IMG/VR virus record: IMGVR_UViG_3300031087_000014
Origin: a virus
Length of the DNA: 64,000 bases
Strand: one strand, 5' to 3'
Position numbers and translations under genes: made by a program. The notes beneath the pieces were generated by a model that was not told the origin of the DNA, ran no database searches, and was given only the letters and a program-made list of their open reading frames with translations. The stretch's first letter is position 1, and the number at the start of each line of letters is the position of its first letter. This document shows positions 14,310 through 19,333 of this stretch, piece after piece.

Positions 14310-14384
14310 TGGTTGCTCCAGCAGGTAACGATCCTGCTTCTGTCGCTTATCAGGCGACTGTAATACCTTTATACTATAGAGCAA
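14310..14384 (-). tRNA. tRNA-Ile(GAT)
   Basis: Cloverleaf; gtcgc-CTGATAA-gcgac; CCA end; T-loop variant ATCGTTA. Confidence 0.85.
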
Positions 14385-14389
14385 TTGAT

Positions 14390-14470
14390 TGGCACGTAGG
14401 TGATGATTCGAACACCTAAACTAACGGGTTTGGAAGCCGTCTCCTGACCACCAGGATTAGTGACCCACGT
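14390..14470 (-). tRNA. atypical tRNA-Trp(CCA)
   Basis: Acceptor acgtggg/cctacgt plus GCCA; TTCGAAT T-loop; loop TTCCAAA; irregular D arm. Confidence 0.6.
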
Positions 14471-14477
14471 ATTTATT

Positions 14478-14556
14478 TGGTGGAGAATAAGAGACTTGAA
14501 CTCTTCTGGTATCCTCGGTGCAAGCGAGGTGTCCACTCCTGGCAGACCCATTCCCC
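14478..14556 (-). tRNA. tRNA-Ala(TGC)
   Basis: cctcg-CTTGCAC-cgagg; G3:U70; ACCA end. Confidence 0.9.
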
Positions 14557-14561
14557 TAATT

Positions 14562-14706
14562 TGGCATCGTAGAAAGGAATCGAACCCCTCAGAGTAGGCG
14601 ATCAACTCTACCTGTGACCCTCATCACTTGGGAGATTAGCTACATCACCACCTCCGTCGAGGAAGTATCTCGTAACCATCTTTCCTTTGCTTTGTATCAC
14701 TACGAC
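14562..14706 (-). ncRNA. 145-nt tRNA-scaffold ncRNA
   Basis: Acceptor gtcgtag/ctacgat plus GCCA and TTCGATT T-arm; ~110-nt non-tRNA body. Confidence 0.65.
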
Positions 14707-14730
14707 ATTTTATTTGGTGATCATTTCATT

Positions 14731-14816
14731 TGGTACATCAGGTGAGACTCGAACTCACACGTCACAAGGACACTGGAACCTAAATCCAGGGCGTCTACCA
14801 ATTTCGCCACTGATGC
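14731..14816 (-). tRNA. tRNA-Leu(TAG)
   Basis: ctgga-TTTAGGT-tccag; long variable arm; ACCA end. Confidence 0.9.
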
Positions 14817-14823
14817 ATTTGTT

Positions 14824-14890
14824 TAGTGGAATCGTGCAGATTCGAACTGCATCCGGCTCCCTACGGGAACCAGTCACCCAAATCAATTCC
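14824..14890 (-). ncRNA. 67-nt mini tRNA-like RNA lacking a D stem
   Basis: Acceptor ggaattg/cgattcc; T-arm tgcag-TTCGAAT-ctgca; one 9-bp hairpin; ends ACTA. Confidence 0.6.
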
Positions 14891-14897
14891 GAGTGTT

Positions 14898-14979
14898 TGG
14901 AAGCGAGAGCGGAAGTCGAATCCGCAATTTTCAGGGTATGAGCCTAACGTGATCTATATATCCGTTTCACTATCTCGCT
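14898..14979 (-). tRNA. tRNA-Met(CAT)
   Basis: ttagg-CTCATAC-cctga; enlarged D loop; CCA end. Confidence 0.8.
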
Positions 14980-15063
14980 ATTGTTAAATCAGCTTTAAAC
15001 TAAAAGCATTATCCACGGCCCTATCAGACTCCTATCTTCAATTAGGGAATCGTAGCCTTGATA

Positions 15064-15136
15064 TGGTGCAGATGCAAGGATTCGAACCTCGAACAAACAC
15101 CTTCGTAGAGTGTTGCCTGTCCATCAGGACACCTGC
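15064..15136 (-). tRNA. tRNA-Arg(ACG)
   Basis: acact-CTACGAA-ggtgt; short D arm; CCA end. Confidence 0.8.
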
Positions 15137-15141
15137 AAAAA

Positions 15142-15216
15142 TGGTGCGACCTGCTGGTAACGATCCAGCCTTTCTGCCTTTTCAGGGCAGCACACATCCG
15201 TCTATGTCAAAGTCGC
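15142..15216 (-). tRNA. tRNA-Phe(GAA)
   Basis: ctgcc-CTGAAAA-ggcag; T-loop variant ATCGTTA; CCA end. Confidence 0.85.
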
Positions 15217-15250
15217 TTTGAAACCGATATCATCTTCGATTTCTATTGTT

Positions 15251-15328
15251 TGGTCAGTGCAGGGTGAATCGAACACCCGACCTCCTGCTCCCAAAGCAGG
15301 CGCTGCTACCAGGCTGAGCTATGCACTG
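15251..15328 (-). tRNA. tRNA-Pro(TGG)
   Basis: cctgc-TTTGGGA-gcagg; CCA end. Confidence 0.92.
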
Positions 15329-15334
15329 AATATT

Positions 15335-15411
15335 TGGGGTGGCTAATGGGACTCGAACCCACATAGAACTGCATCACAGGCAGCGTCATTAAGCCATTAT
15401 GATATAGCCAC
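15335..15411 (-). tRNA. tRNA-His(GTG)
   Basis: gctgc-CTGTGAT-gcagt; C73 plus CCA. Confidence 0.88.
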
Positions 15412-15443
15412 ATCTTAGTGCTCTCATTGAAAACACTAAAATT

Positions 15444-15518
15444 TGGCAGAGGTGAGAGGAGTTGAACCTGCTGCTACGGGAGTCAAAGGCCCGTGTGCTA
15501 CCATTACACCACACCCCT
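15444..15518 (-). tRNA. tRNA-Gln(TTG)
   Basis: Loop CTTTGAC; GCCA end. Confidence 0.88.
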
Positions 15519-15524
15519 AGTATT

Positions 15525-15669
15525 TGGCGAACAGGAAGGAGTCGAACCTTCGTACACATCCTTTGGCGAGGCTATGTATTCTTGAATGCCCATACTAATT
15601 ATGTTTTGTTAGTCAAACAAGCGCCAACTTGCGAACCCTAACGCTACACTTTCATATTGCATCTATCCG
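15525..15669 (-). ncRNA. second 145-nt tRNA-scaffold ncRNA
   Basis: cggatag/ctgttcg end pairing plus CCA; T-arm gaagg-TTCGACT-ccttc; no canonical anticodon arm. Confidence 0.6.
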
Positions 15670-15675
15670 ATAATT

Positions 15676-15747
15676 TGTTGAAGCTAGAAGATAAATCTTC
15701 ATTTGTCAATCTCGGAAGTGACAAGTTTTGCATTAAACTATAGCTTC
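15676..15747 (-). ncRNA. remodelled or degenerate tRNA-like element
   Basis: gaagcta/tagcttc acceptor; D stem; ttgtca/tgacaa stem with 10-nt loop; T stem with 4-nt loop; ends AACA. Confidence 0.55.
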
Positions 15748-15753
15748 TTTTTT

Positions 15754-15841
15754 TGGTATCGTGGACGGGATTCGAACCCGTAAGCAGAAAACTGCGCCAG
15801 ATTGAAAGTCTGGTTACTTAGGCCAATTTGTATACCACGAT
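15754..15841 (-). tRNA. tRNA with TTC (Glu) anticodon and long variable arm
   Basis: ccaga-CTTTCAA-tctgg; gcag-tttt-ctgc variable hairpin; A73 plus CCA. Confidence 0.85.
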
Positions 15842-15847
15842 ATAATT

Positions 15848-15924
15848 TGGAGCGAGATATCGGATTCGAACCGATGACGAACTGCTTGGAAGGCAGACAC
15901 TCTACCAGACTGAGTTAAACTCGC
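15848..15924 (-). tRNA. tRNA-Gly(TCC)
   Basis: Loop CTTCCAA; U73 plus CCA. Confidence 0.92.
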
Positions 15925-16050
15925 AATGTTGAAGGGCTAGCTGTGTGCTGCATATAGAGACATTGCACACCCACGCTGTAAATATTCTCGTTGGAAAACA
16001 CTTACAGAGATCTCTACTGGTATCCAGTTATTCCCCTTCTTGGGATACTC

Positions 16051-16101
16051 CGCGCTACGCTTCACAGCGTTTCGTCTTATTTCAAAGACTCATCAGGCGC
16101 G
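16051..16101 (-). ncRNA. type I hammerhead ribozyme core
   Basis: cgcgc-CTGATGA-gtctt(tgaaat)aagac-GAAA-cgct(gtga)agcg-TA-gcgcg; all core nucleotides and three stems present. Confidence 0.9.
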
Positions 16102-16434
16102 TTTGCTTGATAATATACGATCACGTAGACCTTTTATGTGCCGTCGCGGTCACAACCTGTTATGATAAATCACAGTGCAGGTAGGGGAGAGGGTATAACA
16201 TTTCTGCTATCTCGTGTCGCCCTCTCTAAACAACCTCCATCACTAAAGACTGGACGCTATTGTTATTTGTGGGACAGTGACGGATATCCCTTTGCTGACT
16301 AGGCTACGTTCGGGACTGCTACCTTACAATGTTACAAGCTGTTGCGAATAACTCTGCTCGGTGCTCTCGACAAGAAGTACCCGCTGATACTATGCTCTTG
16401 TCATCCATACTCGCGGTCAAGCTTTCTGGTCATC

Positions 16435-16510
16435 TGGTGCTTGCAGCAGGACTTGAACCCGCGACCCACTGATTACAAAACAGTAGCTCTACCAACTGAG
16501 CTATACAAGC
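16435..16510 (-). tRNA. tRNA-Thr(TGT)
   Basis: Loop TTTGTAA; ACCA end. Confidence 0.92.
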
Positions 16511-16511
16511 T

Positions 16512-16685
16512 TTATCTTAATGGAATACCTTTGTATTCTCTTGAACGTATCAGTGCTTCTCTTCGTTTACGAGCTTCACGTTTTACGTTGTTTGGTGAAC
16601 GAGGATATTCACTGTAGACTTGAAAAGTTCTATTAACTTCTCTTGGTTCATCAAAGGAACCTATGGTCTGCTTCTGGAATGTCAT
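16512..16685 (-). CDS. small basic hypothetical protein (57 aa)
   Basis: AGGAG RBS, ATG at 16685; lies between tRNA-Asn and tRNA-Thr. Confidence 0.6.
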   Translation of the reverse strand: MTFQKQTIGSFDEPREVNRTFQVYSEYPRSPNNVKREARKRREALIRSREYKGIPLR

Positions 16686-16700
16686 ATCATTCTCCTGTAT

Positions 16701-16778
16701 TGGCGATCCTAGCAGGACTCGAACCTGCAACCGGTGGATTAACAGTCCACTGCTCTAACCAATTATAGCTATAGAATC
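16701..16778 (-). tRNA. tRNA-Asn(GTT)
   Basis: gtgga-CTGTTAA-tccac; GCCA end. Confidence 0.92.
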
Positions 16779-16784
16779 ATTGTT

Positions 16785-16869
16785 TGGTGAAATCTACTTT
16801 TCGAGCTTGTATCCCCGAAGGACTGAGTGATATAGATCACGCCATCTCGTCTTCCCTTATTTCGATTTC
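16785..16869 (-). ncRNA. 85-nt CCA-ended non-tRNA RNA
   Basis: gaaatc/gatttc plus ACCA; inner cgag/ctcg stem closing gtgat-ctat-atcac and a cTTCGg hairpin; no T-loop. Confidence 0.45.
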
Positions 16870-16875
16870 ATTATT

Positions 16876-16957
16876 TGGTGGGGCTGCCTGGATTCGAACC
16901 AGGGCGTGGTATGCCTGATTTACAGTCAGGTGCGTTCGGCCTCTCCGCCACATCCCC
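16876..16957 (-). tRNA. tRNA-Tyr(GTA)
   Basis: cctga-CTGTAAA-tcagg; ACCA end. Confidence 0.92.
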
Positions 16958-17025
16958 TTAAACTTTATTTATCAATACTATATCATAAAAGTATTCAGAA
17001 GTAAAGATTTATTTTACTTTTTGTT

Positions 17026-17102
17026 TGGTGCATCGCGGAGGATTCGAACCTCCAGTATTCTGATTAAAAGTCAGATGCCTTATCCAGTTTAGCTAGCGAT
17101 GC
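17026..17102 (-). tRNA. tRNA-Lys(TTT)
   Basis: tctga-CTTTTAA-tcaga; ACCA end. Confidence 0.92.
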
Positions 17103-17103
17103 G

Positions 17104-17197
17104 TGGAGGAGAATATCAGACTTGAACTGATACGCCGCGTTTCCGCGACTACTGAGTGTTTAGCAAACACTTCCCTTACCGTTAGGGTTAATTCTCC
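17104..17197 (-). tRNA. tRNA-Ser(GCT)
   Basis: agtgt-TTGCTAA-acact; long variable arm. Confidence 0.9.
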
Positions 17198-17238
17198 GTT
17201 ACTTCTTATCGGTGTGATTTCTCACTCAATATCTTAGT

Positions 17239-17314
17239 TGGCGGGGATAGAGGAAATCGAATCCTCGGCTCCGCAGTGACAGTGCGGTATTTTTACCAAC
17301 TAAACTATATCCCC
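17239..17314 (-). tRNA. tRNA-Asp(GTC)
   Basis: ccgca-CTGTCAC-tgcgg; GCCA end. Confidence 0.92.
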
Positions 17315-17320
17315 TTAATT

Positions 17321-17411
17321 TGGAGGAAGGTAATGGAGTCGAACCATCATCGGCTATTAACCGATGGGCTGGTTTTCAAGACCAGTTACTCACCGCTGAG
17401 TCCTACCTTCC
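17321..17411 (-). tRNA. tRNA-Ser(TGA)
   Basis: ctggt-CTTGAAA-accag; long variable arm. Confidence 0.9.
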
Positions 17412-17452
17412 TTTAAGTAGTTGTTAACTAACAATCTTCTCTACTTAATACC

Positions 17453-17481
17453 AATGTACCACGTATTTGATTGTCTGTCAA
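17453..17481 (-). promoter_or_regulatory. sigma70-like promoter for the tRNA array
   Basis: TTGACA-17-TACATT. Confidence 0.65.
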
Positions 17482-17498
17482 CAACTATTTTAAACTAT

Positions 17499-17678
17499 TT
17501 ACTGCTTGGTAGAACGAGCGCGTTCACGCTTAGTTTTACCAGTACGGATGCGGTGAGACACTTTCTTCACTTCGCCGTTGATGGTAATTTCAACTGGCTT
17601 ACTTTCAGTCTGAGTAGACTTGCTCTCAAACTGGAAAGGCTGAATGATTTTGTCTACTGCGCTTACTTTCTTACCCAT
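17499..17678 (-). CDS. small basic hypothetical protein (59 aa)
   Basis: AAGGAG RBS, ATG at 17678 (MGKKVSAV...). Confidence 0.6.
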   Translation of the reverse strand: MGKKVSAVDKIIQPFQFESKSTQTESKPVEITINGEVKKVSHRIRTGKTKRERARSTKQ

Positions 17679-17877
17679 TATGTCTCTCCTTATATGATTT
17701 ATTTTTAAATTGTGCCTCTCTGTCGCCATAAGCGAGGCTACTTACTATGATCGGAAAACAAAAAGTTACAATAACTTTTAAAAACGATGGCTTGTATATT
17801 TCATTAAGTTGTGCTCGACAAGAAGGCTAGTCTACAAACGCTACAACTTTAAATCAACGCATATACCAGACGCAAAC

Positions 17878-17954
17878 TGGCACTCCGTGAGGGATTCGAA
17901 CCCCCAACCTAGAGAGTAGAAATCTCTTGCGCTATCCAATTGCGCTAACGGAGC
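17878..17954 (-). tRNA. tRNA-Arg(TCT)
   Basis: agaga-TTTCTAC-tctct; GCCA end. Confidence 0.92.
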
Positions 17955-18408: not shown

Positions 18409-19017
18409 TTACTTGCCGTTGTTAACGGTAACACCCTGGCGCTGAGCATCAGCACGAGCGATTTCCAGACGAGTTTCACGTTCTGCGGTAATCTGACCTT
18501 TCAGATCTTTGTTCTGCTCTTCGAGGAAGGCAATACGCTGTTCAAAAGATTTCTCGTTAGCTTCGAACTGAGCGATGGCTACGCGATGGTTTGATTCGAT
18601 TGCAGACTTCTGAGCGTTAAACGCGATTGCTGCTGAACGTTCACCTGCTGCTTTGGCTTCTGCCAGAGCGTCTTCGTTAGAATCCTGAGCCACAGCCAGA
18701 TCTGAACGGAGGGTAGCCAGTTCTTTAGGATCGATAGTTACCAGAGTACGAGATTTCAGAAGAGTACCAAGTACTTTATCTTCGTCTTCAATTACTTTCA
18801 GTTTCAGTTCAGCAGAAGCTTCACGGAATTTAGTATCGAACTGCTGATTCAGGTTATCCAGATCATTCTGCTTGTATTCGATATCAGTCGCCAGAGAAAC
18901 AGCTTGGTCAGCGATTGCTGCCAGATCCTGGGTGATTTTAACCAGGCCAGTTGCTGCGGTGTTCAGTGCTTTAGTAGAACGATCTGCTACGGTGATTACT
19001 TTTTTAACTTCTGACAT
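18409..19017 (-). CDS. coiled-coil hypothetical protein, probably highly expressed
   Basis: 202 aa; GAGGAG RBS; strongly biased codons; followed by a terminator. Confidence 0.8.
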   Translation of the reverse strand: MSEVKKVITVADRSTKALNTAATGLVKITQDLAAIADQAVSLATDIEYKQNDLDNLNQQFDTKFREASAELKLKVIEDEDKVLGTLLKSRTLVTIDPKELATLRSDLAVAQDSNEDALAEAKAAGERSAAIAFNAQKSAIESNHRVAIAQFEANEKSFEQRIAFLEEQNKDLKGQITAERETRLEIARADAQRQGVTVNNGK

Positions 19018-19098: not shown

Positions 19099-19205
19099 TG
19101 GAGCCGGATGGTGGAGTCGAACCACCTATGTATTCACATCACCCTAAAAGTGAATGCTGTTTTCGGGCTTTGATGGCCCCGCCCTTACCCAAGGGCTTAT
19201 CCGGC
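19099..19205 (-). ncRNA. 107-nt atypical tRNA with CA-TCA-AA loop and oversized variable arm
   Basis: gccggat/atccggc plus TCCA; D arm gccctt-gggt-aagggc; gggc-CATCAAA-gccc; T-arm ggtgg-TTCGACT-ccacc. Confidence 0.7.
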
Positions 19206-19207
19206 GT

Positions 19208-19333
19208 TGGTTGATGCGTAACAGGACTCGAACCTGCAATGTGTGAGTCATCGGCGGCTTCCGGTAAGCTACGGCGCTCAACCGTAGTAGATTCCCTATT
19301 CCCCCGCGTCTACCTATTTCGCCAGACGCATCA
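19208..19333 (-). ncRNA. 126-nt Leu-like tRNA-scaffold RNA
   Basis: 8-bp acceptor tgatgcgt/acgcatca plus ACCA; Leu-type D arm GCGAAATAGGTAGACGC; TTCGAGT T-arm; expanded central region. Confidence 0.65.

Follow-up and report, generated by a model that had tools for sequence, protein, structure and literature searches.

What kind of RNA is encoded at positions 19,099 to 19,205 of this viral DNA, where a tRNA-like gene carries a UCA (opal) triplet in its anticodon-like loop? The window, i.e. the whole stretch of 64,000 nucleotides that was analysed, comes from a 141-kb virus record (IMGVR_UViG_3300031087_000014, 96% complete), a distant relative of the Vequintavirinae, and the DNA samples containing it are mostly plant, phyllosphere and silage metagenomes. 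An earlier note had suggested an opal suppressor, a Cys- or Gly-charged recoding tRNA, or a decoy. The element proved to be a member of a conserved family of tRNA-shaped RNAs in the tRNA arrays of enterobacterial phages. Judged from its sequences, this is a family of non-canonical, class-II-like tRNA-shaped RNAs of Vequintavirinae-type arrays. Full-text literature searches found no description of it.

The element lies on the minus strand, with its 5' end at 19205 and its 3' end at 19099, and reads as a cloverleaf RNA of 107 nt with an encoded U73-CCA. Its parts are the following.

19099-19205, minus strand: whole tRNA-like RNA; 110 bits with the family covariance model R1 (E = 1.6e-25).
19199-19205, minus strand: 5' strand of the acceptor, GCCGGAU, with its partner at 19103-19109; compensatory changes in 5 of 7 pairs across 33 homologues.
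19197-19198, minus strand: linker A8 A9 before the D arm, read from the sequence.
19181-19196, minus strand: D arm, 6-bp stem GCCCUU/AAGGGC with the 4-nt loop GGGU; 3 of 6 pairs covary.
19180 (G26) and 19164 (G44), minus strand: conserved mismatch flanking the anticodon-like arm.
19165-19179, minus strand: anticodon-like arm of 15 nt, 4-bp stem GGGC/GCCC and loop CAUCAAA, from the sequence and the MFE fold.
19171-19173, minus strand: UCA triplet of this loop, with A33 before and A37 after it, from the sequence.
19157-19164, minus strand: 5' flank of the variable hairpin, GAAAACAG, with the GAAAA motif 3' of the anticodon-like arm; in the family alignment its G and last three A are invariant and its first A nearly so.
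19137-19156, minus strand: variable hairpin CAU-U-CAC/GUG-AUG with loop UUUUAGG; compensatory changes in L055 and L050, and the MFE fold agrees.
19127-19136, minus strand: 3' flank of the hairpin, UGAAUACAUA, unpaired; AUACAUA invariant in 33 of 33 aligned sequences.
19110-19126, minus strand: T arm GGUGG-UUCGACU-CCACC, from the sequence and the family alignment.
19099-19109, minus strand: 3' strand of the acceptor, AUCCGGC, discriminator U73 and encoded CCA, from the sequence and the family alignment.

Much of what the earlier note had described in the molecule is borne out. The acceptor (7 bp, GCCGGAU/AUCCGGC) and T stems (GGUGG/CCACC), which it called perfect, pair throughout, and the D stem, for which it had proposed 6 bp with a 4-nt loop, pairs at all six positions in each of the 33 aligned sequences. 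The loop CA-UCA-AA, A33, U73 and the 7-bp acceptor, listed there as departures from tRNA-Sec, are all read in the sequence, and the long variable region measures 38 nt between the anticodon-like stem and the T stem. Since the linker is A8 A9, the element has no U8. Its acceptor/T branch has the standard 12 bp (7/5), an arrangement found in 33 of 33 aligned sequences. Pairing of C25 with G44, with G26 bulged, would give an anticodon stem of 5 bp; because these columns never vary, comparison does not distinguish this alternative from the mismatch.

ARAGORN called 18 tRNAs in the array at 14310-17954 of the window and did not call the element; it also misses the homologues in Hena1, PVP-SE1 and UTK0002, and on that of Pr121LW it makes an odd call with a four-letter anticodon. 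The best Rfam family for the element is tRNA-Sec, with 36.5 bits against a gathering score of 47 (E = 7.8e-6 in a 361-nt search). The MFE fold is a cloverleaf (z = -2.83), and none of 200 shuffled sequences was equally stable. The absence of Cys and Val tRNAs, noted earlier for the window, extends to the whole 141-kb genome, as judged with ARAGORN and Rfam; tRNA-Trp is absent from both as well.

BLAST and pattern scans recovered 34 distinct homologues. The alignment used for covariation holds 33 of them, L040 being parsed separately; an earlier version held the first 20. The carriers are Vequintavirinae phages (Hena1, PVP-SE1, GAP31, Mydo, Av-05 and rV5-like phages), one N4-like phage and metagenomes, as listed here.

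Erwinia phages Hena1 and pEp_SNUABM_01, annotated by their depositors as tRNA-sup(tca) or suppressor.
Salmonella phages PVP-SE1 and SSE121, and Cronobacter phage GAP31.
E. coli phages 4MG, Av-05 and the rV5-like Pr121LW.
Raoultella phage Ro1 and Proteus phage Mydo.
N4-like Salmonella phage UTK0002.
IMG/VR and metagenome contigs.

A search of five genomes with the family model gave one copy in each. At most loci examined the gene starts a few nucleotides past the CCA of the preceding tRNA; in the window it begins 2 nt past the CCA of its upstream neighbour. In most records examined it is unannotated, and in some a 'hypothetical protein' CDS is drawn across it. A search with a pattern for the 5' half returned 74 new loci, none of which matched the family model. 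A match in a Sporosarcina bacterial genome and two metagenome matches were set aside, as by eye they lack the acceptor and D-arm sequences of the family.

In the 33-sequence alignment all 726 stem cells are paired, and in 11 of the 22 pairs both partners have changed. Sliding the partner columns by 1-3 positions lowers pairing to 35-50%; the pairing of these aligned stems is thus far beyond chance. The third base of the D loop (19) covaries with T-loop base 56, being G:C in 25 sequences and U:A in 8, which corresponds to the elbow contact of tRNA and therefore strongly supports an L-shaped fold. The aligned sequences describe a constant scaffold, formed by the acceptor, D arm, T arm and the single strands GAAAA and AUACAUA, and two parts that vary between clades, namely the anticodon-like arm and the variable hairpin. 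L027 (UCA type) and PVP-SE1 (UCC type), for example, have identical acceptor, D and T arms and differ in the anticodon arm and the hairpin. The arms fall into five types.

Type A: 4 bp with loop (C/U/A)AUCAA(A/G); window, Hena1, UTK0002, L027, L042, L043, L050 and others, 12 distinct sequences; U73-CCA.
Type B: 5 bp with 6-nt loop C-N-N-C-C-A (UCC or GCC); Seunavirus and Mydovirus; U73-CCA.
Type C: loop UUUAUAA; Av-05 group; 3' end without CCA.
Type D: loop UUUUUAA; rV5-like phages; A73, then CC or CA.
Type E: loop GUGAUA; L040; U73-CCA.

The standard 5-bp stem with 7-nt loop is absent from every member of the family. The arm measures 14-16 nt, as opposed to the standard 17, in the forms 4 bp + 7 nt, 5 bp + 6 nt and 4 bp + 6 nt, and each clade departs from the standard in a different way. 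Every one of the 24 aligned sequences with a UCA or NCC loop retains U73-CCA, as does L040, which was parsed separately; the Av-05 and rV5-like clades encode CCA incompletely. The hairpin motif GAACUAACAGUAC is combined with a type A arm in some members and with a type B arm in others.

Several of the loops nevertheless resemble those of real anticodons: UUUUUAA is Lys-like and C-N-N-CCA Gly-like, and UUUAUAA and CAUCAAA belong here as well. Position 32 is a pyrimidine in most members and A37 is present, as in a decoding tRNA. G1:C72, C2:G71 and U73 co-occur with NCC or NCA loops, and A73 with the UUU loop. The first combination looks like the identity set of a glycine or cysteine tRNA, as would suit a real adaptor, and gives the Gly charging suggested in the earlier note some basis in sequence. 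With NCC and UUU loops, respectively, the two combinations match the identity rules of the E. coli Gly and Lys synthetases, which would suit real charging. The core AUCAA is invariant across the 12 type A sequences, which come from several lineages. This is not significant (probability by chance about 0.19), because 72% of the other type A columns are invariant too, and it therefore leaves selection on the type A loop undemonstrated either way.

For the variable region, the earlier note had drawn a stem between ATTCAC and GTGAAT. The complementarity is there, but as the fold of the minus-strand RNA it probably does not form: relatives and the MFE fold favour the hairpin at RNA nucleotides 50-69. 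Two close relatives carry the comparative evidence. L055 has a C-G to U-A change within the CAU-U-CAC/GUG-AUG hairpin, and L050 has GUC/GAC and GUAU/AUAC around the same hairpin loop, UUUUAGG. The letters GUGAAU are part of the near-invariant unpaired motif (U/G)GAAUACAUA, and the hairpin leaves GAAUACAUA single-stranded. A search of five phage genomes for antisense targets of the invariant AAUACAUAGG motif gave no complementary 10-mers beyond the gene itself.

The nearest known tRNAs differ from this family in specific ways. Bacterial tRNA-Sec (RF01852) shares with the element the 6-bp D stem with tetraloop, the lack of U8, the UCA, the long extra region and the G18/G19-type elbow contacts, and the loop CAUCAAA is one letter from CUUCAAA, the loop of E. 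coli tRNA-Sec. However, tRNA-Sec has an 8/5 branch where the element has 7/5, and the eighth pair would be A8-C65, which cannot form. It also has G73 and U33 where the element has U73 and A33, and the element's anticodon stem of 4 bp is shorter rather than longer. Unlike in tRNA-Sec, the extra hairpin is set between conserved single strands of 8 to 10 nt, and in relatives the UCA is replaced by NCC, UAU or UUU loops. In allo-tRNAs and the selC* tRNA-Cys, too, the D stem-loop is like that of tRNA-Sec, the variable arm is long and the anticodons are diverse, UAU and those for stop codons among them; in selC*, U73 goes with the anticodon UCA or GCA (PMC5389517). Most allo-tRNA-UAU species were judged to be possibly unused in translation (Mukai et al. 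2017, PMC5389517). The family shares the D stem-loop, the long variable region and the diversity of anticodons with allo-tRNAs, whereas its linkers around the variable hairpin are long, conserved and single-stranded. Allo-tRNAs have an 8/4 or 9/3 branch (PMC5389517) and a longer anticodon stem; the family has 7/5 in 33 of 33 sequences and 4-5 bp. In contrast to allo-tRNA and selC*, it is found in virulent enterobacterial phages. As the 8/5, 8/4 and 9/3 branches are not found in it and the anticodon stem is shorter, we set the family apart from both tRNA-Sec and allo-tRNA.

With canonical elongator and suppressor tRNAs the element shares the 7-bp acceptor, the 5-bp T stem, the T loop, the elbow pairs, N73-CCA and the purine at 37 (A37); it differs in having 4 bp + 7 nt and A33 in place of a 5-bp stem, a 7-nt loop and U33. 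Phage tRNAs that escape host tRNA-cleaving defences reportedly include those of T5 acting against PARIS and anticodon-loop variants of mycobacteriophages. Like the present family they are array RNAs with host-like anticodon loops, the rV5-type member having the Lys-like UUUUUAA, but they are otherwise canonical and have been shown to decode, whereas the body and arm of the element are non-canonical. Bacteriophage T4 encodes RNAs C and D, stable tRNA-like RNAs of obscure role. According to its citation in PMC5389517, tRNA-Other of B. cereus is another stable tRNA-like RNA of obscure role. By description, not by sequence, these resemble the element as small stable RNAs with tRNA-like ends that lie among tRNA genes or are charged without a clear role in decoding; unlike them, members of the family have retained the complete cloverleaf. 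A review of non-canonical tRNAs gives the anticodon stem as consistently 5 bp and the loop as 7 nt and does not mention phages (PMC7609411).

Within the window the element most resembles a serine tRNA. The family model's best match there other than the element itself, at 27 bits, is the tRNA-Ser(UGA) of 17321-17411, which scores 42.9 bits on the Rfam tRNA-Sec model. The two have in common an AG/AA linker, a D stem of 5 to 6 bp with a tetraloop, U73-CCA, the T loop UUCGACU, and a variable hairpin that starts with CAU, ends with AUG and has a U/A-rich 7-nt loop. The tRNA-Ser differs in its standard 5-bp stem and 7-nt loop, U33, short linkers around the variable arm and acceptor start G1-G2-A3, and is called by ARAGORN. 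The element's acceptor begins G1-C2, unlike the G1-G2-A3 of the phage tRNA-Ser genes. G2:C71 is a serine identity element, and the element has C2:G71. In UTK0002 and Pr121LW the element closely follows a tRNA-Ser(UGA). From these likenesses we infer descent from a Sec-like, possibly 8/4, phage tRNA-Ser(UGA), after which the acceptor would have changed to G1-C2, the linkers expanded and the anticodon arm shortened. Both tRNA-Ser genes of the phage (17321-17411 and 17104-17197, minus strand) have U73 in place of the usual G73. The tRNA-Ser(UGA) has the D tetraloop GCGG and an AG linker, and its sequence also permits an 8/4 drawing, as for the phage allo-tRNA-Ser described by Mukai et al.

Does anything in these genomes call for UGA reading? 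Under code 11, ORFs of at least 100 aa cover 76% of the genome and reading TGA as sense adds little, and we rejected reassignment of the stop codon. TGA ends 24% of the ORFs in this genome, 33% in Hena1 and 24% in UTK0002, all carriers of type A, compared with 34% in PVP-SE1 and 32% in Pr121LW, relatives with non-UCA loops. Programmed read-through was rejected as well: 3 of 55 TGA-ending ORFs have long in-frame extensions (307, 210 and 172 codons), and these proved to be independent genes, a ribosome-binding site and an ATG following closely on each of the TGA stops. In-frame extensions behind TGA are slightly shorter than those of other ORFs in this genome (median 6 versus 11 codons, one-sided p = 0.03), but as a sign of suppression such back-up stops are marginal here (p = 0.03-0.045) and were discarded, since non-carriers have extensions that are just as short (median 6-7 codons). 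The tail assembly chaperone has a -1 slippery site U-UUU-UUC (L193:397-403, about 72397-72403 of the genome and outside the window) some 60 nt before its TAA; from there the -1 frame continues without a stop as far as a TAA that precedes the tape-measure gene by 26 nt. The idea of a 'shifty tRNA', with the Gly-UCC and Lys-UUU types serving a G-GGA-AAG chaperone site and the UCA type serving read-through, was dropped; the chaperone ends in TAA, and the shift involves Phe codons (checked in this genome only). Filling of gaps in the tRNA set was also rejected, for PVP-SE1 carries an ordinary tRNA-Gly(UCC) in addition to the Gly-like element and Hena1 has Trp, Cys and Lys tRNAs. The TGA use, the extensions, the chaperone and the tRNA-Gly of PVP-SE1 therefore indicate that nothing in the genomes needs or is adapted to UGA reading. 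With off-standard arms, loops that differ between clades, ordinary TGA use and no gene needing read-through, the earlier suggestion of an opal suppressor or recoding tRNA found no support.

A working suppressor, which we consider possible but doubtful, would be charged, most plausibly with Gly, Cys or Ser, delivered by EF-Tu and able to read UGA at low to moderate levels, so that some host or phage proteins would be extended or UGA-containing messages rescued. Its UCA is centred in a 7-nt loop with A37, U73-CCA is encoded and the acceptor/T branch is standard, but the stem has 4 bp and positions 8 and 33 are A. The deposited suppressor labels of Hena1 and pEp_SNUABM_01 favour it, as do the sister clades with UCC/GCC and U73 or UUU and A73, fitting the Gly and Lys identity rules; yet no member has a standard arm. 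The conservation of AUCAA speaks for it but lies within chance for the clade, the short extensions behind TGA recur in non-carriers, the share of TGA among gene ends in carriers (24-33%) is about that of non-carriers, and no gene requiring read-through was found. Selenocysteine insertion with the host Sec machinery is very improbable. The D stem, tetraloop, UCA, extra region and near-identical loop make tRNA-Sec the best Rfam match, but the score stays below the gathering score, homologues have other loops, and the branch, discriminator, A33 and shorter anticodon stem all disagree. We also find it unlikely that the element is only structural, a 'punctuation' for RNase P or for 3' processing of the array and the mRNA of the downstream 202-aa gene, or a decaying tRNA duplicate. 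ORF 19017-18409, which is encoded on the same strand, does begin 82 nt downstream of the element, but in most relatives the next gene is a tRNA or a homing endonuclease. Several more tRNA-shaped oddities occur in the same array and the CCA is incompletely encoded in two clades, but a pseudogene would not keep complete pairing, 11 compensatory pairs and invariant unpaired motifs across phage genera and an unrelated N4-like phage. Processing alone leaves the invariant letters of AUACAUA and AAA unexplained.

The reading that we favour, tentatively, is that of a tRNA-scaffold RNA derived from a Sec-like tRNA-Ser, matured like a tRNA and perhaps charged, which would present an anticodon-loop look-alike as a mimic or decoy. 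A specialised mimic is likelier than a working suppressor, because the anticodon arm departs from the standard and varies from one relative to another; a decoy, also named in the earlier note, accounts for the comparative pattern no less well than decoding does. RNase P and 3' trimming would cut the element from the array transcript like its neighbours, and it may be aminoacylated. It is probably not an efficient UGA decoder, since its stem is 1 bp short, position 33 is A and sister clades have loops of 5 to 7 nt; any UGA reading would be weak. The look-alike loop, held on a stable tRNA scaffold, would instead most likely be offered to some tRNA-binding factor; candidates are anticodon nucleases of the host, other defences directed at tRNAs, and enzymes that recognise the anticodon loop. 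Against a decoy, we know of no enterobacterial anticodon nuclease that targets a UCA loop. A bolder version, a possibility that we rate no higher than that of the working suppressor, is a dedicated class of 7/5 Sec-like tRNAs with an exchangeable anticodon-arm module (for UGA here, with Gly, Lys and Ile loops elsewhere) that would recode messages or neutralise host tRNA-targeting immunity, GAAAA and AUACAUA forming a new tRNA core or docking site. If true, this previously undescribed class would include a natural opal suppressor in a virulent phage with the standard code.

Phages of the rV5, PVP-SE1 and Hena1 types are common and are used in biocontrol and therapy, yet most of the examined records leave the gene unannotated, two label it as a suppressor tRNA and some overlay it with a 'hypothetical protein'. 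Calls of 'tRNA-Sup(TCA)' in these phages should not be counted as evidence of recoding. A conserved scaffold with a fast-changing anticodon arm is a candidate for natural recoding of stop or sense codons or for a counter to tRNA-cleaving defence. For tRNA biologists the family provides a naturally occurring 7/5 molecule in which a D arm of the Sec type is combined with the absence of U8, a shorter anticodon arm and a larger variable region.

The surroundings of the element contain further genes of interest. Directly downstream, 18409-19017 (minus strand) encodes a 202-aa Ala/Glu-rich, coiled-coil-like protein (PHROG 9325) with no Pfam match and no convincing PDB match. It is 50% identical to a protein beside the tRNA array of UTK0002, another carrier of the element. 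A tie between element and gene was rejected; the two lie near each other in UTK0002, but in PVP-SE1 and Hena1 the gene is not found close to the element. HNH genes adjoin the element in PVP-SE1 (L002:601-1095, minus strand, an unannotated ORF called from its motif by eye) and in Ro1 (L012:1-322, annotated as a homing endonuclease), which suggests that mobile endonucleases shuffle segments of tRNA arrays.

Upstream of the element, at 19208-19333 (minus strand), its neighbour is another non-canonical tRNA-like RNA; it is about 126 nt long, and neither ARAGORN nor Rfam detects it. It has an 8-bp acceptor (UGAUGCGU/ACGCAUCA), A73-CCA and a D arm of the tRNA-Leu type, and a single unpaired base separates its normal T arm from the acceptor. 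In its relatives L036, L054 and L055 the acceptor, D and T stems show compensatory changes and the middle of about 70 nt is completely different, with a Leu-like loop that reads UUGAGCG here and CUUAAGC in the relatives. As a test of paralogy, model R1 was applied to this neighbour and does not match it.

Elsewhere in the array, Rfam finds two tRNAs missed by ARAGORN, both on the minus strand: one at 14901-14979 with a CAU anticodon loop (Met or Ile2 type) and CCA directly 3', and one at 15679-15747, of 69 nt, with an unusual anticodon arm. Most of the inter-tRNA stretches at 14384-14477, 14557-14730, 14817-14900, 15519-15678 and 16779-16875 (minus strand) end in a T-arm-like hairpin, some with an acceptor-like 3' strand and CCA, and their middles are unrelated or greatly enlarged; that at 15519-15678 contains GAAUACAUAG. 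The 510-nt gap between tRNA-Gly and tRNA-Thr holds, at 16064-16129 (minus strand), a hammerhead ribozyme core with CUGAUGA, a stem II hairpin, GAAA, a closed stem III, A and a GCGCG helix I. It scores 30.9 bits with Rfam Hammerhead_3 against a gathering score of 48.5 (E = 0.0014), and from its sequence it could be a self-cleaving processing element.
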